A stretch of 25,784 nucleotides of DNA from an uncultured virus (IMG/VR IMGVR_UViG_2882072473_000006) (Duplodnaviria > Heunggongvirae > Uroviricota > Caudoviricetes): IMG/VR virus record IMGVR_UViG_2882072473_000006, one strand, 5' to 3'. The notes below the pieces were generated by a model. The model had not been told where the DNA came from. It did not search any database and saw nothing but the letters and a program-made list of their open reading frames with translations. Of this stretch, positions 3,506 through 24,944 are shown one piece after another; the stretch's first letter is position 1; every line of letters starts with the position of its first letter. The position numbers and the translations under genes are program-made.

Positions 3506-3883
3506 GTGATCCATTTCAGACATACGGGGGATTTCTCGAAGCTGACCCGGTTTATGGAACGGGCAAAGGAGGCCGTCCGTCTCGGCGATCTGAACAAGTA
3601 TGGCCGGGCGGGGGTGGCGGCCCTCTCGTCCGCAACCCCGGTTGACTCCGGAGAAACGGCCGCCTCCTGGTATTACGAGATTACCAACAAGAACAACACC
3701 ATCACCATCTCGTTTCACAATTCCAACATTCAAAATGGAGTCCCCATCGCCATCCTTCTCCAATACGGGCATGGCACGGGGACCGGAGGCTGGGTACAGG
3801 GAAGAGATTACATCAACCCTGCGATCCAGCCTATTTTTGACCAGATAGCAGAATACGCCTGGAAGGAGGTGACTCGGTCATGA
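3506..3883 (+). CDS. HK97 gp10-like phage tail/neck component (125 aa)
   Basis: AAGGAGGT RBS with GTG start. Motifs ATPVDSGETAASW, LQYGHGT and DYINPA resemble the PVDTG / EYGT / PFLRPA pattern of this family. Confidence 0.6.
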   Translation: MIHFRHTGDFSKLTRFMERAKEAVRLGDLNKYGRAGVAALSSATPVDSGETAASWYYEITNKNNTITISFHNSNIQNGVPIAILLQYGHGTGTGGWVQGRDYINPAIQPIFDQIAEYAWKEVTRS

Positions 3884-12800: not shown

Positions 12801-13407
12801 CGTGGCCCAGTCCAAATCCACCTTTATCGACGAGCTGACCAGCATGGCGCTGGCGGGCGTGGAGGCGGTGAAGAGCACGCTGGAGATCAACTCTCCCTCC
12901 CGGGTCTTCCGGGAGCTGGGGTCCTTCACCGGCCTTGGCTTTGTCAGCGGACTGGCCGGCTATGCCGAAAGGTCCTTTGCCGCCGGCGCAGACATGGCGG
13001 ACTCCGCCGTGGACGGCCTTTCCGGCGCCATTGCCGGACTCCCCGACCTGCTGAGCGGCGAGGCGGAGATGCGGCCCACCATACGCCCGGTGCTGGACCT
13101 GTCTGACCTCACCGGGGCCTCGACCCAGATCGACAGCCTGTTCTACCCCCTGCGGTCCATCCGCCTGGCGGGACAGGCCAGCCTGGCGTTCCAAAACGCC
13201 TCCGGGGAGAACCGGATGCCGGTCAAGGTAGACAACGACGACATCATTGAGGAGCTTCGCACCCTGCGCAGTGAAATGGCAGAGATGACGGAGCGCATGG
13301 AGCGGATGCGGGTCGTGCTGGACACCGGCACTCTGGTCGGTGAGATGGCGGGACCCATGGACAACGCCCTTGGACAGAGGGCGACACGGAGAGGAAGGGG
13401 GAACTGA
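3880..13407 (+). CDS. Phage tail tape measure protein (3175 aa)
   Basis: The N-terminal tape-measure domain has YADKTIYNFTEM, AMYQLSQALAAGKV, DWNSVVNA and GEWLTTE. There are long Ala/Gly-rich hydrophobic repeat tracts and two C-terminal SPS motifs (HSPSREF, INSPSRVF). The gene lies directly upstream of Dit/Tal-like genes. Confidence 0.95.
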   Translation: MSRTIDERIVEMRFDNRQFEQNVQTSLSTLDKLKRGLDLDNAAKSLDGLGDAAKRCDMSVLGKSVETVQAKFSAFQVVAMTTLSNITNSAVNTGKRLVSALTIDPIKTGFQEYETQIGAVQTILANTQHEGTNLQQVNRALDELNTYADKTIYNFTEMTRNIGTFTAAGANLRTSVDSIKGIANLAAISGSTSQQASTAMYQLSQALAAGKVSLMDWNSVVNAGMGGKVFQDALVRTSELLGTGAQNAINMYGSFRESLTRGEWLTTEVLTETLKQFAGAYSEADLIQQGFSEAQARDIAQMAKTAEDAATKVKTFTQLWDTLKESAQSGWTTTWEILVGDFEEAKEVLTEVSDAIGGVISETSQARNELLSGGLSSGWKQLLDQGIADEGGFIESIQEVARESGDAFDKLVADSESFSDALKQGLTDGVVSSETLTQAVHNLREKMTGMSQEERKAAGYTAEMIEQIEALDKGLQNGSVSMEEFTEKILRPSGRENLIQAVWNAAKGLVSVITPIKDAFREIFPPATADQLYSLTETLRSFSEWLTLSEETADKLGRTFKGLFSVLDLVRQGALAIFNALAPLGSGAGSLADGILTITAGIGDFLVGINEAAKQGEFFGTVAQTVASALEFVVSGIERLTGFLADAFAAPGLESFQALLGRIQTRIGQVIDVVSGLGGGVSDAADTMDSALENSKFLQMLQTIFNGAKTLVSGIIGVFGGLAGALVESLSNANFSGVIDLLNGVSLGAIALGIKKFLDSFREVTDSVGSIKEGVIGILDGVKGCFQAWQNDVNAKALLKIAAAVAVLSASILTISLIDSEKLTASLGAITVLFTELMAAMAVFGKLDLNVRGTMKRSTAMIALSSSVLILASALKSIATLEPEQMAAGLAGIAGLMAALVAAAKVLGSGSSSIIKGSAQMVVFAAAIKILASACADLAQLDLAGLAKGLIGVGVLLAEVSLFMNAAKFSGRSVVTASGVLVLAGAMKVLASACKDFAQMGVGELVKGLSAIGAVLLEITAFTKLAGSAKGLITTGAAMIEIGAAMKIFASAMADFGRMSLAEIGKGLLAMGGALAEVAVAMRFMPRNMVTMGAGLIAVGAALNIIADAMRSMGGMSWEAVAKSLVTMGGALVELAVGLNFMNGTLGGSAAMLVAAAALAVLTPVLVTLGSMSWEAIAKGLVTVAGAFAVIGTAGALLTPLLPTILGLGGAFALIGVGVAGVGAGLLLVGTGLSAIAVGITALATSLGAGVAIIVAGLTSIITGIAALIPAIAEKLGEAVVAFAQVITNGAPAIGEAVKTLVLTMVDVLVECVPAIAEGALELVAGVLDALVAYTPQIVDSIMQFLIAVIDGLARNMPTLIQSVVDLLMSFFSGIVSALGSIDTDALLKGIAGIGLLSGIMVALGALAGLIPSAMVGVLGLGVVIAELAIVLAAVGALAQIPGLEWLISEGGQLLQTIGNAIGGFIGGIVGGFMSGVSGSFPQIGMDLAAFMTNIQPFIDGARGIDPAMLEGVKALTGAIMLITAADLLEGLTSWLTGGSSLSTFAEELVPFGEAMKKFSHSITGLDGDLVSTAAIAGKTLAEMAAILPNSGGIAGFFAGENDMGTFGDQLVGFGGSMMKFAASIKGLDTDAVQNAAIAGKAMAELAATLPNTGGAVGFFAGNNDMDDFGEQLVPFGAAIKAYSDAVKGLDVEAVTNSAIAGQAMSELAATLPNTGGAIAFFAGDNDLATFGEQLVSFGASIKSYAQEVTGLDTDAVASSAVAGQTLVELANTLPNTGGLVAFFTGDNDLETFGEQLVPFGEAMKAYSDSVTGMDSAAVTASATAAKALAELQASLPNIGGVVDFFTGGNDLETFANGLLPFGEGMKAYADAVSGMDAGAVSASIIAAQALAELQASLPHVGGVMNFFTGGNDLGLFAEGILSFGEAMNSYGNAVSGIDAGAVSASATAAQALSRLQASLPNVGGIMEFFTGGNDLGKFSEGIIPFGEAMKAYGESVAGIDSSAVEASATAAQSLAELQAALPQVGGLMEFFTGGNDLGVFSEGIVPFGAAMKSYAEAVSGINADAVTASAVAAQALAQLQTDLPNVSGVMAFFNGGNDLGTFAAGIVPFGAAMKSYGDAVADINTGAITASAIAAQSLARLQEALPLVGGVMEFFNGSQDLAAFAAGIIPFGAAMKSYGDAVADIRPEAVESSASAGMALVELAKALPNTGGLLSFFTGGTDLAAFGDDLTLFGADLSAYAEAISNVKADAVTASANAAEALSNLASGLPDSSLFDKWFGGDQTLASFGGDISKFGAAMKDYYGQISGIDTGRMADVVAQVWSLLELAEGAAGVNTSGLTGFADSMRKMGDAGISGFTSAFYNCGDTVNKAVSSMLSTVSGAVLSNLPVTNGAMETVVQSLANIVDGKVPAIRTSTSDMMRTMEASITAHSRTVGDAMRTVLSTAVSNINRMKPEFETAGKNAGQGFINGINSKLGGARSAGRSLGLAALEAAKKALDSHSPSREFIHLGENVGEGLAIGVNNSIVPAAQAASGMIDEVIAVSEKGVDAFEDWINEKQYYGELSLMDELAGWENLQKKYRAGSEERMKIDREVYRVQNELVSATYQASLDWIEEEKYYKRLSTEEELAAYERMQARYLEGSKERMELDRKVFTLRNQLVDESYQNSMDWIEEEKYYNRLSLADELAAYKRVQSRYAKGTEERKKLDREVYRLEQEIYEAQQQYIADVQSVQESANQRRIQLEEAYANKVKSINEQLERDIESLNQQYQDAVESRTKSLYQSYGLFDEVAKKEAVSSETLMQNLEGQVQEFGEWQDILGQLSARGVDSDLIAELQEMGPSAIEEIRALNSMSDDELEKYVSLWSIKHAQARDQATSELEGLRVETQEQIAQLRADAAVELEEYRLTWQSEMAQLEEDTSRQLASLRQEFSENVGLIKRDTEAKMTEMTEAARKILSEAGWTETGQQIPAGLAQGVAQSKSTFIDELTSMALAGVEAVKSTLEINSPSRVFRELGSFTGLGFVSGLAGYAERSFAAGADMADSAVDGLSGAIAGLPDLLSGEAEMRPTIRPVLDLSDLTGASTQIDSLFYPLRSIRLAGQASLAFQNASGENRMPVKVDNDDIIEELRTLRSEMAEMTERMERMRVVLDTGTLVGEMAGPMDNALGQRATRRGRGN
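8525..10900 (+). repeat. About 13 tandem 186-bp (62-aa) repeats within the tape measure gene
   Basis: The FG.AMK anchor recurs at 8532, 8718, 8904, 9090, 9276, 9462, 9648, 9834, 10020, 10206, 10392, 10578 and 10764, an exact 186-bp spacing. The consensus is roughly PFGEAMKAY.DAV.GID..AV.ASA.AAQALAELQ..LPN.GG...FFTGGNDL..F. Array ends are approximate. Confidence 0.92.
11536..12057 (+). repeat. Three tandem 174-bp (58-aa) charged repeats within the tape measure gene
   Basis: DWI(N/E)E(K/E)..YY..LS...EL...DR.V starts at 11536, 11710 and 11884. Confidence 0.85.
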
Positions 13408-13410
13408 GCC

Positions 13411-14172
13411 GTGTATCATTCCATCACCATTGGCGGGAAAAACACCTGGGATGACTGGCGGCTGGTCCCCGCCTCCCGGCCCGTGTTCAATCCGCCGGCC
13501 CAGAAGGTGAAGACGCTGGAAATCCCCGGCGGGGATGGGGTCATCGACTTGTCCCAATCCCTGACCGGGTATCCGGTGTACCAAAACCGGACGGGCTCTA
13601 TCGAGTTTATCGTGATGAACGACTTCAAGCCCTGGCACATGGCCTATTCCGACATCATGGACTATCTGCACGGGCAGAAGCTGCGGGCAGTGCTGGAGGA
13701 TGACCCGGAGTATTTTTACGAGGGGCGGTTCACCGTCAACGTCTGGAAGTCGGAGAAGGACTGGTCGCGCATCACCATCGACTATGACGTGGGGCCCTAC
13801 AAGTGGTCAGTCCTGTCCTCCACGGACGACTGGCTGTGGGACCCCTTCAACTTTCAAAATGGCGTCATCCGCCCCGCCGTGTTCAAGGACATCGCGGTGA
13901 CGACGGAGGTCCGGGCGGTGAAGCTGGCGGCGCTGCTGTTCGGGCGGGCCCCGGTGTGCCCCGTGTTCCGGGTGAGCAGCTCGGATAAGCGGGGAGTACA
14001 CATCCGCTTTATCAACCCCACGCTGGGACTGGACGAGACCAAGCTCCTCCCCGACGGGGTCATCCAGTTCCCGGAGTTTGTGTTCTTCGGCGACCTGGGC
14101 GCCACGCTGGAGCTGTGGTGCGACACGGGAACGGGGTCCGTCTCCGTGGACTTCAGACAGGGGAGGTTGTGA
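13411..14172 (+). CDS. Distal tail protein (Dit)-like (253 aa)
   Basis: Immediately follows the tape measure gene. Motifs LEIPGGDGVIDLS, YQNRTGSIEF, LHGQK...DDPEYFYEGR and GPYK are typical of siphophage Dit proteins. Confidence 0.8.
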   Translation: MYHSITIGGKNTWDDWRLVPASRPVFNPPAQKVKTLEIPGGDGVIDLSQSLTGYPVYQNRTGSIEFIVMNDFKPWHMAYSDIMDYLHGQKLRAVLEDDPEYFYEGRFTVNVWKSEKDWSRITIDYDVGPYKWSVLSSTDDWLWDPFNFQNGVIRPAVFKDIAVTTEVRAVKLAALLFGRAPVCPVFRVSSSDKRGVHIRFINPTLGLDETKLLPDGVIQFPEFVFFGDLGATLELWCDTGTGSVSVDFRQGRL

Positions 14173-14175
14173 CCC

Positions 14176-16449
14176 ATGTATAGCATTTATGCAGACGGCA
14201 TGTGCATTTACAACGACGTCTTTTCCCTGGACAACATGAAGGTGGTCAACCCCAAGCTGACTCTGGAGGACAGCGCCGCCGGGTCTCTGGAGATGACCCT
14301 TCCGCCCACCAACGCGGCCTACGACACCATCGTCCGCATGGTCACAGATATTTCCGTGAAGAAGAACGGGGAAGAAATCTGGGCGGGACGGGCCCTGTCG
14401 GAGAGCCGGGACTTCTGGAACAACCGGGTGCTCTACTGCGAGGGGGAGCTGGCCTTCTTCAACGACTCGGTCCAGCCGCCGGCGGAGTATGCCGGGAAAT
14501 CGGTCCGGGAGTACCTCGACCAGCTCATCGCCGTCCACAACGGGCAGGTGGGTGAGAACCGCCGGTTCGCCATCGGGGCGGTGACGGTGGTGGACGAGGC
14601 CTTCCCCACCTATTACACCAACTATGGCAAGACCCTGGAGTCACTCAACGCCCTGGTGGAAGCCTATGGCGGCCATCTCCGGGTGCGCAAGGCGGACGGG
14701 GTGCGGTATCTGGACTATCTGAAGGACTACCCGGACACATGCAGCCAGGTGATCCAGTTCGGGTCCAACCTGCTGGACTTTGTCCGGAACTGGGACTCCG
14801 CCGAGTACGCCACGGCCATCGTCCCTCTGGGAAACCGGCTGGACGACAGTCCCATCGAGGCGCTGGACGCCTATCTGACGGTGGAGAGCGTGAACGGCGG
14901 AAGCCTGTACGTCCAATCGGACGAGGCAGTGGCGAGCCATGGCTGGATCGCGAAGACGGTGAACTGGGACGATGTGAGCGACCCCCAGGTGCTGCTGGAG
15001 AAGGCCAGGGAGTATCTGGCGGACCTTCAGTTTGACAACCTGGAGCTGGAGCTTTCCGCCCTGGACCTGCACTATCTGGACGTGGAGACCGAGGCGGTGA
15101 AGCTGCTGGACGAGATCCGGGTCATCTCCCGCCCCCACGGGCTGGACCGGCTCTTCCCGGTGACCAGGCTGGAGATCCCGCTGGATGCCCCGGAGAACAC
15201 CCAGTTCAAAATGGGGGATTCGGTACAGGTGAGCCTTACCAGCGTGAGCAACCAGACCAACGCCGCCGTGCTGGACAAGATCGAAAATCTCCCCAAGGCC
15301 CACAACATCCTCAAGGAGGCCCAGGAGAACGCCACCCACATCATGAACATGGCCACCACGGGCTACATCACCATCACGAGGGACGAGCACGGCTCGGACA
15401 CCCTCTATATTTCCAACGTCCGGGACTACACCAAGGCTGACAAGCTCTGGAAGTGGAACATGAACGGCCTGGGCTACTCCAACGACGGGGGAAAGACCTT
15501 CGGGCTGGCCATCACCATGGACGGGGCCATCGTGGCCGACTACATCACAGCGGGGGTGCTGAACGGCAACGTGCTCCGGGTGGGCGTCATCCGGGACTAC
15601 AACTCCAACGTGATCCTGGACCTGGACAAGGGCACCCTGACCATGAAGAAGGGCTCCATCAACATCGGAAACGGAAACTTCACCGTGGACGAGCAGGGCA
15701 ACCTCTACGCACGGCGGGGCACCTTCGCGGGGACGCTGGCAGGAGCCAAGGGGACCTTCGGCGGCACAGTGCAGGCGGAGGACTTTTTGGACAAGTACGG
15801 CAACAGCATGATGGACCTGGCCAAAGAGAAGTTTACCGCCGGATATCTGGACCTGTACGGCCTGACCGTCACCAACAAGAACACCGGGGCGGTCACCTTC
15901 GCCGTGGGGCCGACGGGCCTTATTACCATCAACGGCCAGGTGACCATGGGGGCCGGGAGCACCATCAATTGGGCCCAGGTGAGCAATCAGAACATTCAAT
16001 CCAATCCGGCGTATTCTATGGCCAATCAAGCTTACAACCTGGCGGATGAAGCCTATGATTATGCCGATACCGCGTATTCCAGGGCCGAACGGGCTTATAA
16101 GTTGGCTAATTCCATTGAGATGCCGGGGTACATCAAGAGCACCTACATCGACCAGACCACGATCCGTTCCCCGGTCATCGAGGGCGGAGAGTTCTACGGC
16201 GAGGAATTCAACATCATCGCCGGGGGCGACTTCGGAAGCTTCAACCTCTACGGTCCTTTCGGGAGCAGCCGTTACCACATGCTGGCCATCGAATATTTCG
16301 AGGGTAACGCCCCTCTCATCAACATTTACAGCCCCTGCGGCGGATACATCACCATTGGCCAGAGCCGCAACGGGATCGTCTACTTCAAGGGGGTCGTGGA
16401 TTTCAGCGCCGCAGACGTCCAAGGTCTGGATTTAGGAACAGGAGCATGA
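14176..16449 (+). CDS. Tail-associated hub/spike protein (Tal-like, 757 aa)
   Basis: Follows Dit. The N-terminus has prophage-tail-like motifs (IQFGSNLLDF, TAIVPLG), the middle has WKWNMNGLGYS...AITMDGAIVADYITAG, and the C-terminus has beta-rich Gly repeats. Confidence 0.75.
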   Translation: MYSIYADGMCIYNDVFSLDNMKVVNPKLTLEDSAAGSLEMTLPPTNAAYDTIVRMVTDISVKKNGEEIWAGRALSESRDFWNNRVLYCEGELAFFNDSVQPPAEYAGKSVREYLDQLIAVHNGQVGENRRFAIGAVTVVDEAFPTYYTNYGKTLESLNALVEAYGGHLRVRKADGVRYLDYLKDYPDTCSQVIQFGSNLLDFVRNWDSAEYATAIVPLGNRLDDSPIEALDAYLTVESVNGGSLYVQSDEAVASHGWIAKTVNWDDVSDPQVLLEKAREYLADLQFDNLELELSALDLHYLDVETEAVKLLDEIRVISRPHGLDRLFPVTRLEIPLDAPENTQFKMGDSVQVSLTSVSNQTNAAVLDKIENLPKAHNILKEAQENATHIMNMATTGYITITRDEHGSDTLYISNVRDYTKADKLWKWNMNGLGYSNDGGKTFGLAITMDGAIVADYITAGVLNGNVLRVGVIRDYNSNVILDLDKGTLTMKKGSINIGNGNFTVDEQGNLYARRGTFAGTLAGAKGTFGGTVQAEDFLDKYGNSMMDLAKEKFTAGYLDLYGLTVTNKNTGAVTFAVGPTGLITINGQVTMGAGSTINWAQVSNQNIQSNPAYSMANQAYNLADEAYDYADTAYSRAERAYKLANSIEMPGYIKSTYIDQTTIRSPVIEGGEFYGEEFNIIAGGDFGSFNLYGPFGSSRYHMLAIEYFEGNAPLINIYSPCGGYITIGQSRNGIVYFKGVVDFSAADVQGLDLGTGA
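16009..16113 (+). repeat. Five 7-aa heptad repeats in the Tal-like protein (coiled-coil stalk)
   Basis: AYSMANQ AYNLADE AYDYADT AYSRAER AYKLANS. Confidence 0.8.
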
Positions 16450-16456
16450 CACAGCC

Positions 16457-16828
16457 ATGAAGAAAATGTTAAAAAATTCCGAAGTGTTTGAGCGGCTCCA
16501 CTCGCTCAAGCCACTGCTGTCCCGGCGGGATCGGATCGGTTACATCGCCGCCCGGAACTACCGCTTTCTCTCCAACTCCCTGGTGGAATATGAGACCATC
16601 CGCCTCAGCCTGATCGAGAAGTACGGAGAGGAAGGGAAGGATGAACGGGGACAGCCCACCTTTGTCCTCAAAATGGAGTCCCCCAATTTCAAGACGTTCT
16701 GTGACGAGCTGGCTCCCTTCAACGAGATGACCCATGAGGTGGAGCTGATGACCGCCAAGTACAGCGAAGCGGAGGGGAACCTGACGGGGGAGGAAATTTT
16801 GGCCATCGACTGGATGCTGGAAGATTAG
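16457..16828 (+). CDS. Hypothetical phage protein (123 aa)
   Basis: Fills the gap between neighbouring genes with the operon's codon usage and an AGGAG upstream. No family was recognised. Confidence 0.7.
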   Translation: MKKMLKNSEVFERLHSLKPLLSRRDRIGYIAARNYRFLSNSLVEYETIRLSLIEKYGEEGKDERGQPTFVLKMESPNFKTFCDELAPFNEMTHEVELMTAKYSEAEGNLTGEEILAIDWMLED

Positions 16829-16841
16829 GAGGTGGTCCGAT

Positions 16842-18149
16842 TTGGCCGACATCAGCAGTTTTTTGAAGAAGATTTTGGAGGCGATCTACGGTGAGGAGGT
16901 GCGGGGTTCCATCCACGACGCCCTTGCCGCCATGAATAAGGAGTCCTCCAGCGCGATGGAGTTTGCGGCTACGGCCAAGGACTCTGCCGCCGCCTCCGCG
17001 GAAAAAGCCAAGAACGAGGCGGACACCGCCGGGCAGAAGGCGGCTGAAGCCCTGGACTCCGCCGGGAAAGCCGCCCAGTCTGAAACCAACGCCAAAGCCT
17101 CGGAGACTGCGGCGGAGGGGTACGCGGACCTCGCCGTTGACGCAGCGGAACGGGCCGGAACCTCGGAGGAGAACGCCAAGGCCTCGGAGCAGACGGCTCT
17201 GCAACAGGCCAGAGAGGCGGAGGAGTCCAAGAACGCCGCTGCTCTCAGCGAGGCCGAAGCCAAGGCGGCAGAAGAGCGGGCTAAGGAGGTCCGCAATCAG
17301 GTGGAGACCCTGGGTGCCCAAGCCACGGCAGACGCCGCAGCGGCTCAGGAAGCCAGGACCGCCACAGAGGCGGCGCGGGACGCGGCCAAGGTTAGTGAAA
17401 CCAACGCAAAGGCCTCGGAGACCAAGGCGGAAGACGCCAAAGCGGGCGCGGAAGCGGCGAAGGAAGCCGCCCTGTCCGCCCAGGAGAGCGCCGAGGAGGA
17501 CGCCCTGACCGCCGCCCAGTCCAAGGAGGACGCAGAAGCGGCCAGGACAGCCGCAGAACAGGCCAAGACCGACGCCCTTGACAGCGCCGCAGAGGCCGCC
17601 GGAAGCGCCGCCAAAGCGGAGCAGTACAGCGGCAAGCCGCCCAAGCCTCAAAATGGAACCTGGTGGATCTGGGACGCGGAAACAGGGGCCTATTACGACA
17701 GCCAAATCAGCTGTGAGCTGCAAGGCCCCATCGGCGTGGGCATCCAGGACATCCGGCTGACCAAGGGCGACCACTCGCCGGGCACCACGGATATTTACAC
17801 GGTGCATATGACAGACGGGTCTACCTACACCATTTCGGTCTACAACGGCCTGAACGGTACGGGCGCCGGCGACGTATTGGGTATCTCCTTCGACCTGGTC
17901 ATCCCCGCCGAGGGGTGGTCGGAGGGGAGCGTCACCATTGCGGACGAGCGGCTTTTGGCCCTGGGCACCCACAAGTATTTCCTCAGCGCGGACGAAGCCT
18001 GTAAGGAGGAGTTCCTTGACTGCAATGTGCAGCCCAAGAACATCACCACCTCGGGCTTTCTCACCCTGACCTGCGACACAGAGCCGGCGGCGGACCTGAC
18101 GGTCAACCTGATTCGGCTGGAGCTGTCGGGGAACGGGGCCATTCAGTGA
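16842..18149 (+). CDS. Tail fibre-like protein with Ala/Glu-rich coiled-coil stalk (435 aa)
   Basis: AGGAGGT RBS with TTG start. The N-terminus reads AIYGEEVRGSIHDAL, and SETNAKASE-type repeats run from about 16960 to 17630, as in side-tail-fibre stalks. A NGTWWIWD motif and a globular C-terminal domain follow. Confidence 0.7.
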   Translation: MADISSFLKKILEAIYGEEVRGSIHDALAAMNKESSSAMEFAATAKDSAAASAEKAKNEADTAGQKAAEALDSAGKAAQSETNAKASETAAEGYADLAVDAAERAGTSEENAKASEQTALQQAREAEESKNAAALSEAEAKAAEERAKEVRNQVETLGAQATADAAAAQEARTATEAARDAAKVSETNAKASETKAEDAKAGAEAAKEAALSAQESAEEDALTAAQSKEDAEAARTAAEQAKTDALDSAAEAAGSAAKAEQYSGKPPKPQNGTWWIWDAETGAYYDSQISCELQGPIGVGIQDIRLTKGDHSPGTTDIYTVHMTDGSTYTISVYNGLNGTGAGDVLGISFDLVIPAEGWSEGSVTIADERLLALGTHKYFLSADEACKEEFLDCNVQPKNITTSGFLTLTCDTEPAADLTVNLIRLELSGNGAIQ

Positions 18150-18166
18150 GCAAGGAGGCGAAGCCC

Positions 18167-18703
18167 ATGGAGATCGCAGTGAAAGCAACCTATGCCCATC
18201 TGGTCAAGGACGAGAGTTTGGTACAGAACTCCGACAAGCTTTATATTGTGGAGTTCCACTTTGATCAGAGTTGGGATGGTTATGCCAAATCGGCTGTCTT
18301 TGAAGCCGGCGGCGTACAGCAGCCGCCTGTGGCGTTGACGGATGACCGATGCATTATTCCGGCCGAGTGTTTGAAGCGGGCCGGAATCAATCTAAAAATC
18401 GGAGTTTCCGGCATTAAGGATGGGGTTCAGAAAGACACGGTATGGTGTCTGGCCAGCAAGATCATGTACGCGCTTGACCCCACGCAACTGATGCCGCCCA
18501 CCCACATCGACGGAGACGTGAAGGCCCAGATCCTTGAGGTCATCCGGGAAAATACTGCTACAGATGCAGAGGTTCAGGAAGTCCTCGACAATGCATTCCA
18601 GTCCTCCTGGATACCTCCCGAAAATCCTGAGGCTCCGGACAATACCGCCACTAACGAAGAGGTGGAGTCAATTCTCGATGATGTTTTCGGCGAAGAGCCG
18701 TAA
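18167..18703 (+). CDS. BppU-like baseplate/fibre adaptor (178 aa from ATG 18167; alternative GTG start at 18146)
   Basis: AAGGAGG lies before ATG 18167. FHFDQSWDGYAKSAVF...CIIPAECL...LKIGVSG resembles BppU N-terminal domains. Confidence 0.55.
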   Translation: MEIAVKATYAHLVKDESLVQNSDKLYIVEFHFDQSWDGYAKSAVFEAGGVQQPPVALTDDRCIIPAECLKRAGINLKIGVSGIKDGVQKDTVWCLASKIMYALDPTQLMPPTHIDGDVKAQILEVIRENTATDAEVQEVLDNAFQSSWIPPENPEAPDNTATNEEVESILDDVFGEEP

Positions 18704-18730
18704 ACAAATATTTTTAAGGAGGACATATTT

Positions 18731-19663
18731 ATGTCTAAGCACACTACTCTCGAACAGCTGAAGCTTCTGGCTCAGCGCACCAAGAGCGAAATCAGCAAGG
18801 TCGAATCCAAGTCCCTGGTAGGCGTTAAGGTCAACGGCGTTGCCCTGGCCATCGCCGACAAGATGGTGGACATTCTGATTGCTTCTGGTGCTACCAACGG
18901 CACTCTGTCTGTTGCCGGCAAGGATGTTGCGGTGACGGGTCTGGCGGCCCTGGCCTACAAGGCTCAGATCTCTGAGGCCGATCTGGATACCGCTCTGAAG
19001 GCTGTGCTGGACGGCAAGGCTTCCGGCGCCGATCTGGCCACTCTGATCGGTAAGGATGCTGGTAAGAGCGCCCGCGCCATCGCCAACGAGGAGCTGGCTG
19101 CTCAGCTGATCCCCGAGGGCGCCAAGGAGGCCCTGGATACTCTGACTGAGATTGCTCAGTGGATTCAGAATCACCCCGATGACGCTTCCGCGATGAATGC
19201 CGCCATCACCAAGCTGAACGGTATCGTTGCCGGTATTGGTGGTGACGAGGACGAGTACGCCACCGTGATGACCGCCATTGAGGGCAAGATCACTGCCGCG
19301 CTGAAGGACATTGCCTCCGGTGCGACCAAGGTGGAGAAGTCCGAGGTCAACGGTAACATCAAGATCAATGGCCAGGAGACCGTGGTCTACACCCACCCTG
19401 CCGTTGAGGCTGTCGGTGCCGGCTTCAAGAAGGTCGGTAAGGACAATCAGGGTCATGTGGTGCTGGGCGACGACGTGACCAAGGAGGATATCGTTGCTCT
19501 CGGTATCCCCGCACAGGACACCACCTATCAGCCTGCTACCAGCCAGGCAAACGGTCTGATGTCCAAGGAGGACAAGGCCAAGCTGGACAGCATTGAGGTT
19601 GCGGCCGATGAGGAAGTCAATCAGATGCTGGATGAGGTCTTTGGCGCCGCTGTGGGTGCCTGA
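18731..19663 (+). CDS. Fibre-like structural protein (310 aa), probably abundant
   Basis: AAGGAGG RBS. Fibre-type motifs PEGAKEALDTLTEIAQWI and ATSQANGLMSKEDKAKLD. Codon usage is distinct (GCT/GGT/ACT-rich) and a terminator follows. Confidence 0.65.
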   Translation: MSKHTTLEQLKLLAQRTKSEISKVESKSLVGVKVNGVALAIADKMVDILIASGATNGTLSVAGKDVAVTGLAALAYKAQISEADLDTALKAVLDGKASGADLATLIGKDAGKSARAIANEELAAQLIPEGAKEALDTLTEIAQWIQNHPDDASAMNAAITKLNGIVAGIGGDEDEYATVMTAIEGKITAALKDIASGATKVEKSEVNGNIKINGQETVVYTHPAVEAVGAGFKKVGKDNQGHVVLGDDVTKEDIVALGIPAQDTTYQPATSQANGLMSKEDKAKLDSIEVAADEEVNQMLDEVFGAAVGA

Positions 19664-19671
19664 TAACCGCG

Positions 19672-19710
19672 GAGGGGGATGGGGTATTCCTGTCCCCCCT
19701 CTTATTTTTT
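19672..19710 (+). terminator. Rho-independent terminator-like hairpin
   Basis: GAGGGGGATGGGG-TATT-CCTGTCCCCCCTC imperfect stem followed by TTATTTTTT, just after the stop at 19663. Confidence 0.7.
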
Positions 19711-19727
19711 CGGAAAGGAGCTCTAAC

Positions 19728-20117
19728 ATGGCAGAGAACAAAGCCACAACCTTAGAGCAGTTGCGGGCTCTGGCAGAAAGGGGAAAACTCGATACCCTGA
19801 ACCGCGTCGACCAGCTTTTAGAGTCGATCATTCCTCTGCTGGAGGGCGCACAGCATAGCGGTACTACCGTTACTCTGCCGGCCGAGAACTGGAGCGGCAG
19901 AGCTCAGACTGTAAAGGACAACATCCTTTTGGCTGACGAAAAATACTGGTATATTGTGTGCGCTGACGCGGATTGCTTTATGGCAGTCAGCGAGACTGGC
20001 GTGAAAGCTGACAATATCACCGTTAACGGTCAGGTCACCTTTCACTGCGAGGTAACTCCAACGGAAAATCTGACCATTTATATTTTGCGACTGGAGGTCG
20101 AGCAGAATAATGAGTAA
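19728..20117 (+). CDS. Small fibre-associated protein (129 aa from ATG 19728)
   Basis: GAAAGGAG RBS before ATG 19728, in frame with track ORF 19593..20117. It is paralogous to the C-terminal domain of 16842..18149. Confidence 0.7.
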   Translation: MAENKATTLEQLRALAERGKLDTLNRVDQLLESIIPLLEGAQHSGTTVTLPAENWSGRAQTVKDNILLADEKYWYIVCADADCFMAVSETGVKADNITVNGQVTFHCEVTPTENLTIYILRLEVEQNNE

Positions 20118-22851
20118 TGCAAACGTCGGCAAGGTCTTTAACATGACCGGCGGCAGCGGCGGAGGCGGTACTCTGAGGCTGGAGACCCTGACAATTACCA
20201 AGCCGCCCCAAAAGACCACCTACAAGTCCGGAGAGTCCTTTGACCCCACGGGCATGGTCGTTACCGCGGGCTATGGGTATGGTCTCACTTCGGATGTGAC
20301 TGGATATTCCGTGTCCCCCCAAGTCCTTACGGATGGGGTGACGGAGGTGGTTATCACCTATACCGAAGGCCGCATCACTAAGACGGCAAGTGTACCGGTT
20401 ACTGTGCAGAAGGTGCTGGTATCCATTGCCGTTACCAACAACCCCTCCAAGATGGTCTATCACTATCTGGAGGAATTTGCCCCTGCGGGAATGGTGGTCA
20501 CTGCCAAATTCTCGGATGACTCTACGGAGGAGGTTTCGGGATACACCTATCCCAAGACCGCTTTCTCTACTTTGGGGAGCCGTCCGGTGGAGATCGGTTA
20601 TACCTATGAGGGTGTGACCAAGACCGCCAGCTTGAATGTTACAGTCAACCCCATTGAGGTGGCTGTCCCTGTTCAAAATGGAGTCCTTACCTATGACGGG
20701 ACTGGAAAAACTCCGTCCTGGACTGGGTATGATCCGTCGAAGATGACCATTTCCGGCACGACCAACGGCGTGAACGCTGGGTCCTATTCCGCACGGTTTA
20801 ATCTGTCGTATGGATATCAGTTCCTCGGCGGCTTGGACGAGGTCACGGTTGAGTGGATCATTGACCGGGCGGTCATCGCTTCTCTTCCGGTGCAGAACAA
20901 TGTACTGGCGGCCAACGGCAAACCGCAGGCTCCCACCTGGGCCAACTACGACATCGGTCAGTTGACCATTGGCGGAGACCGATCTGGAACTGACGCAGGC
21001 GATTACAAAGCCACATTTACTCCTACCGCCAACTACAAGTGGTGGGACGGTTCCATTGAGGCCAAGGAGGTCAAGTGGACCATCACCAGCGTTATTGTAC
21101 CCATTCCTACGCAGAAGGGCTCGCCGACCTATACGGGAGCGCCCCAGACACCGGAATGGGATAACTTTGACCAGGTGAATTCCAAAGTGCAGGTGACCGC
21201 ACAGACCAATGCCGGCACCCACTCTGCCACATTTATTCTTCTGAATGGCATGTGGTCGGACGGTTCTACGACCAATAAAACCGTTCAGTGGAGCATCGGC
21301 CGAGCTTCCATCGCCAAGGTTCCCGCCCAGAGCGGAGCTTTGAAGTATGATGGGGACCCCAAAACTCCGGTGTGGGACGCCAATTATGATCCGAGCAAAA
21401 TGACGGTATCTGTAGAGGCGAAGGTCAACGCCGGCACAGGGTACACTGCCGCCTTTACACCGGATTCCAACCATCAGTGGTGGGATGGCACGGTGGACGC
21501 CAAGACAGCTACCTGGGCTATCGGCAAGGGCGATCAGGTCGTATCTGTAAGTCCGACAAGTGTGACGCTGAATACCGGCGCCCGAAGCGCCAAGTTTACC
21601 GTGACCCGAAAGGGCGACGGCGTGATCTCTGCCGTTTCCAATAATGTTGGTGTGGCTACGATCGGTAACATCAATCAGCAGACCGGCGAGGTTACGGTGA
21701 ACAGTGTAAATAACATCACCGGCACGACTACAATTATTGTTAAAGTAGCTGCGGGAGCCAACTATCTGGCTGGGGCCGATAAGCAGGTAGCAGTCAATGC
21801 CCAGTTCGTGACCATCTACGGCGTGGAATGGGACTGGACCAGCAGCGGCCCCACCAAGGGTAAGCGCACCGACGGAGCGGCGGGCTTTGGGGACCCCAAC
21901 CCGGCGGTGAACAACGGCTCCGGCTCCTCGCCCTTTGACGACTTGTACCCGTGGAAGGACATGACCAAGGTCACCCGGACGGGCGGCGTGATGGTCAAGG
22001 AGCCCAAGTATTGGTTCAAATGGACCAAGACCGGGAAGAAGCTGAAGCTCCAGATCGCCGACGGCCCCGTGGAAGGGTTCCATGTTGACCCGGTGAATAT
22101 GGACCGTGGGGACGGCCTTGGAGAGCTGGACCTCTCCTACATCGCCCGGTATCACTGCGCCAGCGGCACCTACAAGTCGGAGACCAACAAGGCCCAGCAG
22201 GTGAACATCACCCGGAGCACGGCACGAACCCAGATCCACAACCTGGGGGCCAACATCTGGCAGCTGGACTTTGCCCAGATGTGGTATGTAAACATGCTGT
22301 TTCTGGTGGAGTTCGCGGATTGGAACGGCGAGCGGATCGGCCGGGGCTGCTCGGCCAGCAATTCCAAGGAGAACAACGGGCGTACGGACGCCATGCAGTA
22401 CCACACCGGTACTACGGCGGCCAATCGGGATACTTACGGTTTCACACAGTACCGGAACATCGAGGGCTGGTGGGACAATGTGTACGACTGGATGGACGGC
22501 TGCTATTACAATGGCAACGGCCTGAACGTCATCAAGAATCCCAATCAGTTCAGCGACAGTGCCAACGGCGTGCTTGTCGGTAAGCCGGTTGCTGGTTACC
22601 CGAAGGACTTCGCCATCCCGACCCAAAGCGGGCTGGAGTGGGCGCTGTATCCCTCTGAGGCTGGCGGCAGTACCACCACATATGTCCCGGATGGCTGGAA
22701 TTTCAGCGGTGGTCTCCCGTGCCTGCTCCGCGGCGGTTACTATTACCGGAACCAGAGTCACGGGCCGTTCTACGTGGGCTGCGGCAGTGCGTCGGGCACG
22801 TACTCCTACATCGGCTGTCGCCTCCAGGAACGCCCGCCGAAGGCGGCGTGA
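20110..22851 (+). CDS. DGR target protein: Ig-like repeat adhesin/receptor-binding protein with predicted C-terminal C-type-lectin fold (913 aa)
   Basis: Two Big_3-like Ig domains (ITKPPQKTTYKSGESFDPTGMVVTA and VTNNPSKMVYHYLEEFAPAGMVVTA), then four ~73-aa beta repeats. The C-terminus (YRNIEGWWDNVYDW...RGG...IGCRL) matches CLec/FGE-like DGR targets, and the VR lies at the 3' end. Confidence 0.9.
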   Translation: MSNANVGKVFNMTGGSGGGGTLRLETLTITKPPQKTTYKSGESFDPTGMVVTAGYGYGLTSDVTGYSVSPQVLTDGVTEVVITYTEGRITKTASVPVTVQKVLVSIAVTNNPSKMVYHYLEEFAPAGMVVTAKFSDDSTEEVSGYTYPKTAFSTLGSRPVEIGYTYEGVTKTASLNVTVNPIEVAVPVQNGVLTYDGTGKTPSWTGYDPSKMTISGTTNGVNAGSYSARFNLSYGYQFLGGLDEVTVEWIIDRAVIASLPVQNNVLAANGKPQAPTWANYDIGQLTIGGDRSGTDAGDYKATFTPTANYKWWDGSIEAKEVKWTITSVIVPIPTQKGSPTYTGAPQTPEWDNFDQVNSKVQVTAQTNAGTHSATFILLNGMWSDGSTTNKTVQWSIGRASIAKVPAQSGALKYDGDPKTPVWDANYDPSKMTVSVEAKVNAGTGYTAAFTPDSNHQWWDGTVDAKTATWAIGKGDQVVSVSPTSVTLNTGARSAKFTVTRKGDGVISAVSNNVGVATIGNINQQTGEVTVNSVNNITGTTTIIVKVAAGANYLAGADKQVAVNAQFVTIYGVEWDWTSSGPTKGKRTDGAAGFGDPNPAVNNGSGSSPFDDLYPWKDMTKVTRTGGVMVKEPKYWFKWTKTGKKLKLQIADGPVEGFHVDPVNMDRGDGLGELDLSYIARYHCASGTYKSETNKAQQVNITRSTARTQIHNLGANIWQLDFAQMWYVNMLFLVEFADWNGERIGRGCSASNSKENNGRTDAMQYHTGTTAANRDTYGFTQYRNIEGWWDNVYDWMDGCYYNGNGLNVIKNPNQFSDSANGVLVGKPVAGYPKDFAIPTQSGLEWALYPSEAGGSTTTYVPDGWNFSGGLPCLLRGGYYYRNQSHGPFYVGCGSASGTYSYIGCRLQERPPKAA
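20668..21530 (+). repeat. Four tandem 72-73-aa Ig/MBG-like repeats in the DGR target
   Basis: P.Q.G.L.Y.G...TP.W..YD...NAG.Y.A.F...W begins at 20668, 20887, 21106 and 21322 (spacing 219, 219, 216 bp). Confidence 0.8.
22682..22823 (+). repeat. DGR variable repeat (VR)
   Basis: 142-bp ungapped match to 23032-23173 with 21 mismatches, every one opposite a TR adenine. It encodes VPDGWNFSGGLPCLLRGGYYYRNQSHGPFYVGCGSASGTYSYIGCR. Confidence 0.97.
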
Positions 22852-22921
22852 CCATTCCCCTGGGGAGGAGGGGGTTTGGGGTGAGGGGACCGCAGTCCCT
22901 TCCCCCAAGCTCCGGCCTTCC
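22810..22921 (+). promoter_or_regulatory. Putative IMH and downstream hairpins (DGR homing cis-elements)
   Basis: The invariant GC-rich ATCGGCTGTCGCCT is followed by CCAGGAA in VR versus TCTTGAA in TR. A hairpin CCGCC-GAA-GGCGG lies at 22834-22846, and a long imperfect hairpin is centred on GGGAC-CGCA-GTCCC (22886-22899). Confidence 0.65.
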
Positions 22922-22930
22922 ACGCATTTC

Positions 22931-22955
22931 AAAATGGAGCGGAAGGGCTCCTTTT
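22931..22955 (+). terminator. Terminator-like hairpin between the target gene and TR
   Basis: AAAAT-GGAGC-GGAAGG-GCTCC-TTTT. Confidence 0.45.
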
Positions 22956-23031
22956 CACCTTAATAAGAACAACATTTGAAACCGCTCTTCTTTGGTAAGA
23001 GGAGAGCGCGGGGTCGACTTTGCAGCAGACG

Positions 23032-23173
23032 ATGTCCCGGATAACTGGAATTTCAACGGTAGTAACCCGTGCCTGCACCACGGCGGTAACTATAACCAGA
23101 ACCAGAATCACGGGCCGTTCTACGTGAACTACAACAGTGCGTCGAACACGAACTCCAACATCGGCTGTCGCCT
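23032..23173 (+). repeat. DGR template repeat (TR)
   Basis: Contains 40 adenines and 13 AAC/AAT codons in the VR reading frame. It lies between the target gene and the RT. Confidence 0.97.
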
Positions 23174-23393
23174 TCTTGAAGCAGACGCAGGCCATTGGGC
23201 CTGTCGGGTATGGCTGAACCTCCTATCGGTAGTCAGGGTTCCTCACCCTTTCTATTACGCAGAGTTGACCGCGCAGCACTTGCTGACGATGAGCCGTCAG
23301 GACACAGCCTGGTACACTTCGGGCCGGGTTTCGCCCCGGAACCACCCGCGGCGATGGAACGGCTGTGAGGCTACAAGGAGGATATTATCCCTG

Positions 23394-24569
23394 ATGAAAC
23401 GAGTGAGAGTTTACCAACAAATCCTTTCGGAAGACAATCTGCGCCTGGCCATCCGGGAAGCCAACCGGGGACACCGGCGCAACGGCGACCACAGCCTGAA
23501 CAAGAAGGTCCTGGAGATCGAGGCGAATATGGATGCGTATGTGGCGGAGCTGCGCAGGTTCATTGAGGACCTGGTGAGCGGGGACGCGCACATGCACCCG
23601 CCGCTGAAACGGCGGCGCTGGGACCGGAACGCGGACAGCGGAAAGGGCAAATGGCGGGACATCAACGAGCCGCTTTTGTGGCCGGACCAGTATGTCCACC
23701 ATGCGGTGTTACAGCCCATGATCCCGCACATCATGCGGAGCATGGACAAATACTGCATCGCAAGCGTGCCGGGACGGGGAAATTCCTACGGGGTCAAGGC
23801 GATCAAGAAGTGGATGAACGGCGACGCCGCCGGCACACGGTACGGTGCGGAATGCGACATCTACCACTGCTTTGAGGAGCTGGACCCGCCGTATGTCATC
23901 CAGGCACTGAAACGGCTGTTCAAGGACCGGGAGACCCTCTGGCTGTGCGACGCCCTGATGGAATACGGCGTACTTATCGGCGCGTTCTTCTCCGCCTGGT
24001 TCCTGCACCTGGTACTCCAGCCGCTGGACCTGATGATCCACCAAAGGGAGTACGGCGTCAGCCACTACCTGCGGCAGATGGACAACTTCACCATCTTCGC
24101 CTCCAGCAAGCGGAAATTGCGGAAGCTGATCCGGGATATTCAGGCGTGGCTGGCCGACGTGGGACTAAAGCTGAAAGACAACTGGCAGGTCTTTCGGATC
24201 GGCTTTACCCCAAGGGTGGAGAAGGCCAGAGAGCAGCTGCCCGAGGCCAAACAGCGCCGAAGACGGCCGAGGATTCCGTCGGCGCTGGGCTACCGGTTCG
24301 GGCACGGTTACACCATCCTCCGAAAGCACAACCTGTTTCGGCTCAAGCAGTCGCTGCATTTATATTACTACCGAAGGGATCGAAACCGGGTCATCTCGTT
24401 TAAGCGGGCCTCCGGCCTGATCTCACGGCTTGGGCAGCTCCGAAAGTGCGATTGTCAACGGATTTTGGAGCGGTATTACCAGCCGAAGACCATGTTCGAT
24501 CTTAAGAAAGTCGTCCGAAAAGAGTGCAGACGGCTTCAGAAATTATATCCGCCCTACCAGGCGGCGTGA
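23394..24569 (+). CDS. DGR reverse transcriptase (391 aa from ATG 23394)
   Basis: AAGGAGG at 23375-23381. RT blocks GKWRDINEP...DQYVHHAVLQ, CIASVPGRG, ECDIYHCF, GVLIGAFFSAW, YLRQMDNF, GLKLK and LGYRF, with a basic C-terminus. It is adjacent to TR. Confidence 0.93.
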   Translation: MKRVRVYQQILSEDNLRLAIREANRGHRRNGDHSLNKKVLEIEANMDAYVAELRRFIEDLVSGDAHMHPPLKRRRWDRNADSGKGKWRDINEPLLWPDQYVHHAVLQPMIPHIMRSMDKYCIASVPGRGNSYGVKAIKKWMNGDAAGTRYGAECDIYHCFEELDPPYVIQALKRLFKDRETLWLCDALMEYGVLIGAFFSAWFLHLVLQPLDLMIHQREYGVSHYLRQMDNFTIFASSKRKLRKLIRDIQAWLADVGLKLKDNWQVFRIGFTPRVEKAREQLPEAKQRRRRPRIPSALGYRFGHGYTILRKHNLFRLKQSLHLYYYRRDRNRVISFKRASGLISRLGQLRKCDCQRILERYYQPKTMFDLKKVVRKECRRLQKLYPPYQAA

Positions 24570-24582
24570 AAGGAGCGGCACC

Positions 24583-24927
24583 ATGAAAGTACAAGGGATG
24601 GTTGACCCCGGCAGTTTTACCGTGGAGCGCATTCCCGGAAGCGGAAGAAGCCTTGTACGGCTTTTCCAGAACGTGACGCCTGTCCAGACCGAGGACTTCA
24701 CCGGATATGAGTACGACGAGTACCATGTGGAGGTGGAGACCTGGGACGGCATCGCGGCAAACGTGCGGGAGAACTACGAGACGTTCCTGAGAAAGGGAGT
24801 AGACAACGAGATCGACCGCAGCAATCGGGCACTGTATTCCGCACAAGTGGATACGGATGCCATGAACGTGGACCAGGAATTCCGTCTGACTCTGCTGGAG
24901 CTGGGTCTGACGGAGCTGGATATTTAA
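24583..24927 (+). CDS. Hypothetical acidic phage protein (114 aa from ATG 24583)
   Basis: GAAAGGAG RBS. The protein reads MKVQGMVDPGSF...YEYDEY...EFRLTLLELGLTELDI, like small proteins that follow phage fibre genes. Confidence 0.7.
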   Translation: MKVQGMVDPGSFTVERIPGSGRSLVRLFQNVTPVQTEDFTGYEYDEYHVEVETWDGIAANVRENYETFLRKGVDNEIDRSNRALYSAQVDTDAMNVDQEFRLTLLELGLTELDI

Positions 24928-24944
24928 GAAAGGGGAAAACTACT

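Follow-up and report, generated by a model that had tools for sequence, protein, structure and literature searches.

The window analysed here is the whole of a 25,784-nucleotide (nt) stretch of DNA from an uncultured virus of the Caudoviricetes (IMG/VR record IMGVR_UViG_2882072473_000006). Towards its end lies what is very probably an active diversity-generating retroelement (DGR), consisting of a tail-fibre gene that ends in a variable repeat (VR), a matching template repeat (TR) and a gene for reverse transcriptase (RT). An earlier reading of the letters, hereafter the original prediction, had proposed for 20110..24569 a phage DGR which mutagenises an Ig-repeat receptor-binding protein of 913 amino acids (aa), as in Bordetella phage BPP-1. 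The cassette and its immediate surroundings are laid out as follows:

20110..22851, plus strand: target gene, an open reading frame (ORF) of 913 aa with Ig-like content in its N-terminal part and a C-terminal domain of ~350 aa, predicted to have a C-type lectin/formylglycine-generating enzyme (CLec/FGE) fold, which contains the VR
21790..22848, plus strand: modelled C-terminal domain (aa 561-913), with a predicted C-type-lectin/FGE-like fold over about model residues 56-352
22682..22823, plus strand: VR, encoding target aa 858-905, located by repeat alignment and hypervariable at positions of TR adenines among near-identical genomes
22824..22849, plus strand: VR-specific 3' flank CCAGGAAC, a boundary resembling an initiation of mutagenic homing (IMH) site, followed by hairpin 1; placed by the end of TR/VR homology and by folding
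22874..22910, plus strand: GC-rich hairpin 2, placed by folding
23032..23173, plus strand: TR, with 40 adenines and 13 AAY codons in the VR frame
23174..23393, plus strand: non-coding TR-RT spacer, containing the Rfam motif RT-18 at 23274-23380
23394..24569, plus strand: DGR RT of 391 aa, isoelectric point (pI) 10.1, from Pfam, PHROG and NCBIfam scans and choice of start
24583..24927, plus strand: small acidic ORF of 114 aa, pI 4.3, directly 3' of the RT gene

The VR and TR form an ungapped direct repeat of 142 nt with 21 mismatches, as found by both our own script and a repeat search, and the coordinates and counts of the original prediction were thereby reproduced exactly. All 21 mismatches lie at TR adenines (14 A>G, 6 A>T and 1 A>C). 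Given a TR composition of 40 A, 43 C, 32 G and 27 T, 21 of the 40 adenines are altered and none of the 102 other bases; mismatches at non-adenine template positions, named in the original prediction as a sign to the contrary, were not found in the window's 142 nt. If mismatches fell at random, the TR base counts would put the chance of 21/21 on adenines at ~0.28^21, or ~3e-12. In the frame of the target ORF, the changes occupy codon position 1 ten times, position 2 eleven times and position 3 never, and from none of the 27 A-containing codons of the TR, read in the VR frame, can a stop be reached by mutation of A. The VR ends 28 nt before the stop codon of the target ORF, and on either side of the 142 nt the copies differ at bases of every class.

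The same adenine bias extends to related loci, where relatives of the RT numbered 278 in viral contigs and 60 in genome contigs. Across 62 TR/VR pairs (the window and relatives, four loci with gapped BLAST matches being omitted), TR adenines account for 1051 of 1083 mismatches and 34 pairs differ at adenines only, while a blind self-BLAST of 235 loci returned 150 A-biased repeat pairs, in 148 loci where RT homologues adjoin them. The adenine-only signature on which the original prediction was built therefore stands in the window, and its bias recurs in relatives. An ordinary duplication of the fibre gene's 3' end, with the adenine pattern arising by coincidence or as an effect of composition, would also leave a direct repeat, and the repeat is all that favours it. 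It is vanishingly improbable and already refuted, given 21/21 mismatches at adenines against an A content of 28%, the recurrence of the bias in the relatives' pairs, and the presence of an adjacent RT together with a conserved RNA motif.

Recent activity, also part of the original prediction, is borne out by comparison of near-identical genomes. The window's TR is 100% identical in 11 related loci, and the VRs of eight of these were compared with that of the window, giving nine near-identical genomes. Compared with the window, the eight loci carry 0-2 differences in the 208-nt spacer that separates VR from TR, 3-57 in the upstream 600 nt, and yet 18-29 in the 142 positions of the VR. Variation within the set of nine VRs is confined to 40 columns, 37 at TR adenines and three at C; the latter are VR columns 45, 59 and 78 (window 22726, 22740 and 22759), each beside a TR adenine. 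The TR is thus invariant and the VR variable in all nine genomes, and an identical TR combined with differing VRs is, on this comparison of sequences, the mark of repeated, recent and directional transfer from TR to VR. Since the flanks are also nearly identical, retrohoming is more recent than almost any nearby point mutation. Metagenomic assemblies agree: contigs of runs X15, X1 and X4, from three studies, each cover 22000-24000, and the VR differences listed for them fall at 27 distinct places, 27/27 of which are TR adenines. The contigs of a further run, X2, end at 22698 and restart at 22928, leaving the VR uncovered, which is compatible with an assembly break at a polymorphic VR and proves nothing.

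It could still be that the DGR is real and now inactive in the window's genome, its 21 differences being the frozen trace of past retrohoming. One genome cannot reveal ongoing activity, and the metagenome runs were all compared as assembled contigs, in which heterogeneity of the VR within a population is not directly seen. This explanation is nevertheless unlikely, as all components of the DGR are intact, the 142 nt hold no non-A mismatch, and genomes with an identical TR and almost identical flanks bear different VRs.

No second VR was found in the window's lineage within 11 kb downstream (genome G001, locus L081). Two relatives, L042 and L046, have a second VR at 8094-8234, ~3.4 kb downstream of the TR, with adenine-only mismatches (20/20 and 15/15, respectively). 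In L042 it is covered by no ORF of at least 80 aa, and these second VRs may be orphans in a gene fragment that still receives retrohoming.

The RT gene follows the repeats, as originally described. Its likely start is the ATG at 23394, 220 nt past the TR and behind AGGAGG at 23377-23382, which gives 391 aa. A frame of 525 aa running from the TTG at 22992 was considered and set aside as not the likely start; only the in-frame repetition of coding sequence by the TR keeps that frame open. The protein has a motif A of CDIYHCF, a motif 4 of LIGAFFSA and a catalytic box of QMDN. When aligned to the RT of the group II intron GsI-IIC, RQMDN stands opposite RYADD, so that the tyrosine is replaced by glutamine and the second aspartate by asparagine, and the window RT does not have both aspartates of the canonical YxDD box. 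As YxDD is a general RT feature and the hallmarks of the DGR process are present, the element was filed as a DGR with a variant enzyme. In motif 4, for which the DGR pattern is [I/V/L]GxxxSQ, the IGxxxS core is present and the final Q is replaced by A, and relatives of the same clade at 36-49% identity have IGxxxSQ; the RT was accordingly placed in the DGR clade. An RT grouping with group II introns or retrons had been put forward as evidence against the original prediction. The match to TIGR04416, the group II intron RT model of NCBIfam, scores 35 bits against a cut-off of 300, the NCBIfam scores for Drt3a, Drt4 and Drt5 are far under their cut-offs, and no RNA family of group II introns or retrons was found by Rfam in 22500-24700 at E up to 1. 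These scores, together with the DGR-type motif 4, do not point to such a grouping.

The asparagine is, judging by its distribution, fixed in a whole clade (hereafter DN, as opposed to DD) and not a private lesion of the window RT. Among relatives in viral contigs, MDN occurs in 80/80 alignable sequences (from 79 loci, L001 and the window), as QMDN in 68 and YMDN in 12. Among those in genome contigs, 43 of 59 have DN, all but one partial match at 36% identity or more, and the 16 with DD are all at 33% identity or less. An exhaustive search of the library with the RT returned 1636 matches at E <= 0.001, and 97 full-length representatives comprised 18 with xxDN, 78 with xxDD and one that was misaligned. 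The rest of the active site follows the same division: YMDN members retain SQ in motif 4, the QMDN sub-clade has SA or SS, and the residues before motif 4 co-vary with the box ([LMQK]IG in DN vs P[IL]G in DD). Since their VRs carry adenine-only differences, DN-type elements are evidently functional. No paper joining YMDN to DGRs or YXDN to reverse transcriptase was found in the literature, where survey supplements could list such RTs, and the literature searched yielded no earlier description of a non-canonical DN RT clade.

In the YxDD box, the second aspartate is commonly held to be catalytic. Both aspartates were reported as 100% conserved in 155 DGR RTs in the available text of Schillinger 2012 (PMC3521204). 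Asparagine at this position is expected to cripple a canonical RT, and it is conceivable that the window's own enzyme is catalytically dead and that another RT, from the host or a co-resident element, diversifies the VR in trans; two further RVT_1 genes are present in the nearest genome, G001, and one in virus record G403. Against such a helper, the gene for the DN RT is intact, is kept in relatives as distant as 36% identity, in 43 genome loci (many from Oscillospiraceae, others from further hosts) and 80 viral loci, always adjoins a TR with an A-biased VR, and is the sole RVT_1 match in three of four complete related virus records. The other RTs of G001 are ~474-aa frames located on different contigs, and the clade-specific substitution spectrum described below is not what an assortment of helper RTs would produce. 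A helper is thus quite improbable, and the chemistry would be carried out by the resident DN RT. A Ty1 RT mutant with asparagine at the position of the second aspartate reportedly retains polymerase activity, and many RNA-virus polymerases use GDN.

The DN and DD sets also differ in which bases replace adenine. A first count of substitutions was rejected because it was inflated by BLAST extension into non-homologous flanks, and the spectrum was instead taken from self-BLAST pairs trimmed to their core, with duplicates removed and 10 gapped pairs left out:

QMDN, 63 pairs: 739 A>G, 322 A>T, 12 A>C; A>C share 1.1%
YxDN, 31 pairs: 251 A>G, 148 A>T, 8 A>C; A>C share 2.0%
xxDD, 37 pairs: 243 A>G, 114 A>T, 95 A>C; A>C share 21%

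The per-pair A>C share differs from that of xxDD at p = 2e-14 for QMDN and 7e-9 for YxDN (Mann-Whitney). Many DD loci were drawn via homology of the target domain, which makes it unlikely that selection forbids, in general, the amino acids introduced by A>C. According to the available text of Handa 2021 (PMC7826257), the bRT-Avd complex of BPP-1 misincorporates dGTP in vitro only ~2.5-fold less than dCTP or dATP, a level that resembles the DD set. If A>C is excluded, the number of amino acids accessible to an AAY codon drops from 15 to 9, and the theoretical repertoire of the window's VR falls from ~10^23.7 to 10^19.1. A tentative explanation is that, in a working Avd-less DGR RT lineage with Y/Q-M-D-N, the change to asparagine itself nearly abolishes misincorporation of dGTP opposite A, lowering A>C from ~21% to 1-2%. 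This explanation is rather doubtful. The contrast between DN and DD is confounded by phylogeny, DN having essentially one origin and the active-site residues co-varying, and possibly also by selection on different sub-families of target.

The spacer between TR and RT holds a conserved RNA structure. The RT-18 motif (RF03021) matches at 23274-23380 with 62.4 bits against a gathering score of 41.3 (E 4e-10, model positions 1-84 of 84), and the match ends 14 nt upstream of the RT start. Of 20 relatives, 17 have RT-18 at the same position between TR and RT, whether their RT is canonical or non-canonical; of the exceptions, L107 has RT-17, and L229 and L233 have no match at the gathering score. The 220-nt spacer is strongly conserved down to 48% RT identity, and an alignment of 19 spacer sequences has 34 predicted pairs, eight with compensatory changes. 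The available text of Weinberg 2017 (PMC5737381) places RT-10 in the equivalent region of BPP-1 and speculates that other RT motifs serve other DGRs. The window's locus supports this idea for RT-18, as an RNA element of DGRs. A full-text literature search pairing RT-18 with structured RNAs found no paper. Just after the TR, at 23185-23202, a small hairpin (CAGGCC-ATTG-GGCCTG) is present in the group with 95-100% identical TRs; it is deleted in a group with 83% RT identity and is for that reason probably dispensable.

Signals that could direct the transfer lie at and beyond the 3' end of the VR. Homology between TR and VR stops at 22823, after which a conserved CCAGGAAC follows on the VR side and YCTTG, likewise conserved, on the TR side; the two flanks differ from each other and each is kept in relatives. 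Hairpin 1 (22830-22849) is GC-rich, with 8 bp, one bulge and a GAA loop, overlaps the stop codon, and is kept in 14 of 17 aligned relatives. Hairpin 2, with a CGCA tetraloop, lies 50 nt past the VR and is found in 17/17 aligned relatives, where the pair beside its loop-closing pair is GC in 8, AU in 5 and CG in 4, a compensatory pattern. It is a candidate target-recognition hairpin or cruciform, or could be the terminator of the fibre gene. Two features by which DGRs are recognised are thus present, namely a GC-rich inverted repeat on the downstream side of the VR and IMH/IMH*-like ends that diverge.

The diversified protein matches the predicted length of 913 aa in the ORF list. Its description as an Ig-repeat protein holds in part: one Big_3 domain at aa 33-99 exceeds the Pfam cut-off (E 1.7e-5) and He_PIG matches weakly, but self-BLASTP found no internal repeats at E 1e-3. 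A PHROG match to phrog_5302, 'tail protein', spans aa 616-912. By sequence alone, the C-terminus had no match in Pfam, NCBIfam or the PDB, even at E 10 or with a shallow profile (A2), and the Pfam FGE-sulfatase family matched neither the tip nor its distant homologues; a lead came from the ESM Atlas, with PF03781 on 29% of one cluster (score 0.95). A first structure model, built on A2, an alignment of 31 sequences from close relatives, was unusable, with a predicted local distance difference test (pLDDT) of 42.9, and was superseded. Distant homologues were obtained by searching 399 same-class genomes with a profile (11 with a match) and by two viral-contig scans seeded from them, and a hidden Markov model iterated over the homologues' ORFs gave an alignment (A3) of 91 sequences.

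The AlphaFold2 model of aa 561-913 on A3 reached a pLDDT of 94.8 and a predicted template modelling score of 0.94. The A3 profile matches PDB 5VF4, the variable protein TaqVP of Thermus aquaticus, at E 2.3e-19, and 5VF4 is also the best Foldseek match for the model (E 2.9e-8). VIA-align Z scores are 23.2 for TaqVP (252 residues, root-mean-square deviation 3.2), 14.0 for Mtd, 13.6 for TvpA, 13.4 for PvdO and 12-13 for formylglycine-generating enzymes. The CLec fold that the original prediction had envisaged for the C-terminal ~350 aa is thereby confirmed, at the level of a predicted structure, as a CLec/FGE fold, and in the model the VR falls in its last strands. TaqVP is thus the best structural and profile counterpart, with the VR at the C-terminal end of the CLec fold in both; it differs in sharing 14% sequence identity and in being a bacterial protein of 381 residues, whereas the domain in the window caps a 913-aa phage protein with Ig-like domains. 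Hundreds of proteins of ~360 aa (P0274-P0393) match the last 214 aa of the target at 76-89% identity, so that the same diversified tip sits on a much shorter protein in related phages. The target would act in receptor binding as an adhesin, and its variation would change host specificity.

No accessory protein of the Avd type was found for the RT. The 180 nt gap between VR and TR leaves no room for a gene, and the Avd model (PF05635) matched none of the window's ORFs even at E 10, and nothing in G001 or in four complete related virus records, a positive control from B. thetaiotaomicron being matched. Avd occurs in about two thirds of DGRs and is not obligatory. In the available text of Wu 2018 (PMC5758913), 75 of 372 DGRs have no accessory genes and one lineage has no avd; that of Handa 2021 (PMC7826257) states that the BPP-1 RT needs Avd for catalysis.

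The original prediction had missed the lack of Avd, in which the cassette differs from that of BPP-1, the QMDN box in place of YxDD, and the conserved acidic ORF that follows the cassette beyond the predicted coordinates. Homologues of this ORF are found between -200 and +150 nt relative to the RT stop in 100/100 cases, next to RTs of 23-99% identity. Among loci with sufficient downstream flank, a homologue is present in 60/60 with QMDN, 20/43 with DD and 0/31 with YxDN. The window's copy matches the N-terminal part of proteins that bear a tail-fibre assembly-chaperone domain; five of 15 aligned homologues carry such a Phage_tail_APC/tail-fibre-assembly domain at their C-terminus, and the window's copy is without it. 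A role as substitute for Avd was considered and is disfavoured. Since Phage_tail_APC occurs in five of 15 homologues and the ORF is absent from the 31 YxDN loci, the favoured reading is a putative fibre-assembly chaperone, with TR and RT nested between fibre and chaperone genes; the ORF may be functionally linked to the cassette. It may also be the CH1 protein of Architecture E in Wu 2018, a small acidic flanking protein of 160-169 aa and pI 4.7 in the available text, which the window's ORF (homologous frames of 146-175 aa) resembles in a comparison by description only.

Among the closest known systems is BPP-1 (mtd-avd-TR-brt). In both, the VR is at the 3' end of a phage tail-fibre gene and the TR just upstream of the RT, the repeats differ at adenines only, the diversified tip adopts a CLec fold, the VR is followed by GC-rich inverted repeats, and a structured RNA lies between TR and RT (RT-10 in BPP-1, as given in the available text of Weinberg 2017, and RT-18 in the window). 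The window differs in having no avd between VR and TR or elsewhere by the PF05635 search, a QMDN and not a YMDD-type box, a motif 4 ending in SA and not SQ, hairpin loops other than GRNA, and membership of a clade in which A>C is almost absent. BPP-1 is absent from the best 30 of 79 records matched by tblastn with the window RT. Architecture A of Wu 2018 is likewise described, in the available text, as a TR-RT core without avd, HRDC or MSL, and no mention of a departure from YxDD was found in that text. The nearest named phage RTs by tblastn belong to Lactobacillus phage LBR48, Butyrivibrio phages Arawn and Idris, Faecalibacterium phage FP_Epona, crAss-like phages, Bacteroides phage p00 and ANMV-1, all at 23-29% identity over 72-97% of the query; we take these phages to carry DGRs. 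Among the GenBank phage matches listed, none exceeds 29% identity except an unannotated 5-kb faecal fragment at 42%, and no cultured or annotated phage of the DN clade was found in that collection (79 records matched, all at <60% identity). Megablast of 20110-24930 against the phage collection gave zero matches.

The setting of the cassette is that of a tailed phage, as the original prediction had supposed, with the following tail genes recognised upstream by Pfam and PHROG matches:

3880..20117, plus strand: siphovirus-type tail module
555-944: tail assembly chaperone, in the upstream tail module
1512-2813: Phage_lysozyme2 and Amidase_2 protein of 433 aa, within the tail module and upstream of the tape measure
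3880-13407, plus strand: tape measure protein of 3175 aa
13411-14172, plus strand: Dit-like protein
14176-16449, plus strand: Prophage_tail/Tal protein
up to 20117, plus strand: other tail proteins

The tape measure is unusually long. The nearest genome, G001, is 98% identical across the cassette region, and the window's stretch was found in mouse, rat and dog gut metagenome runs. Hosts of the RT relatives are mainly Oscillospiraceae, plus other Clostridia, and in the genome-contig search a cultured strain of Muriventricola aceti had an RT at 98% identity. Related virus records rated complete by CheckV measure 82-102 kb.

Taken together, these results allow the locus to be identified, with high confidence, as an active DGR of a temperate siphophage of gut Oscillospiraceae, with the layout target(VR)-TR-RT, no Avd, an RT of the DN clade, and almost exclusively A>G and A>T substitutions. 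In addition to the altered catalytic box and the use of assembled contigs, three observations weigh against this identification. Non-A mismatches amount to 32 of 1083 in the 62 pairs, 21 of them C>T. The absence of Avd rests on one Pfam model, and the Avd family is divergent. Finally, the available text of Guo 2011 describes GC stems of 7-10 bp with GRNA tetraloops, 4-34 bp past phage VRs and required for efficient retrohoming; the window's hairpins are of this kind, but their loops are GAA and CGCA and not GRNA, and hairpin 2, at 50 nt, lies beyond that range.

In the proposed mechanism, the TR and the conserved RT-18-bearing spacer would be transcribed, and the 391-aa RT would copy the TR of this RNA intermediate into cDNA, possibly self-primed from the spacer, misincorporating opposite template adenines. 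This cDNA would then take the place of the VR in the 3'-terminal part of the 913-aa tail-fibre gene, and the flank peculiar to the VR, together with the GC-rich hairpins that lie downstream of it, would probably impose the direction. As a result, as many as 27 codons could vary in the final strands of the lectin/FGE tip, giving ~10^19 to 10^24 protein variants, which would presumably retarget the phage to other ligands or host receptors.

As a DGR acting on the tail fibre of a gut phage, the element is of a well-known kind, common in gut phages; it is set apart as a variant by its membership of the non-canonical DN RT clade, which apparently works independently of Avd and makes few A>C changes. 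The genomic comparisons indicate that an RT lineage without the second aspartate of YxDD still performs mutagenic retrohoming in nature, apparently without Avd. This bears on which active-site features cause adenine-specific infidelity, and working DGRs would escape motif filters that demand YxDD or SQ. RT-18, until now an orphan motif in Rfam, gains a likely role and a genomic place. If the asparagine does cause the loss of A>C, the clade would be a natural experiment in which adenine infidelity is uncoupled from the canonical two-aspartate site, and would offer a direct handle on how DGR RTs pick the wrong nucleotide.

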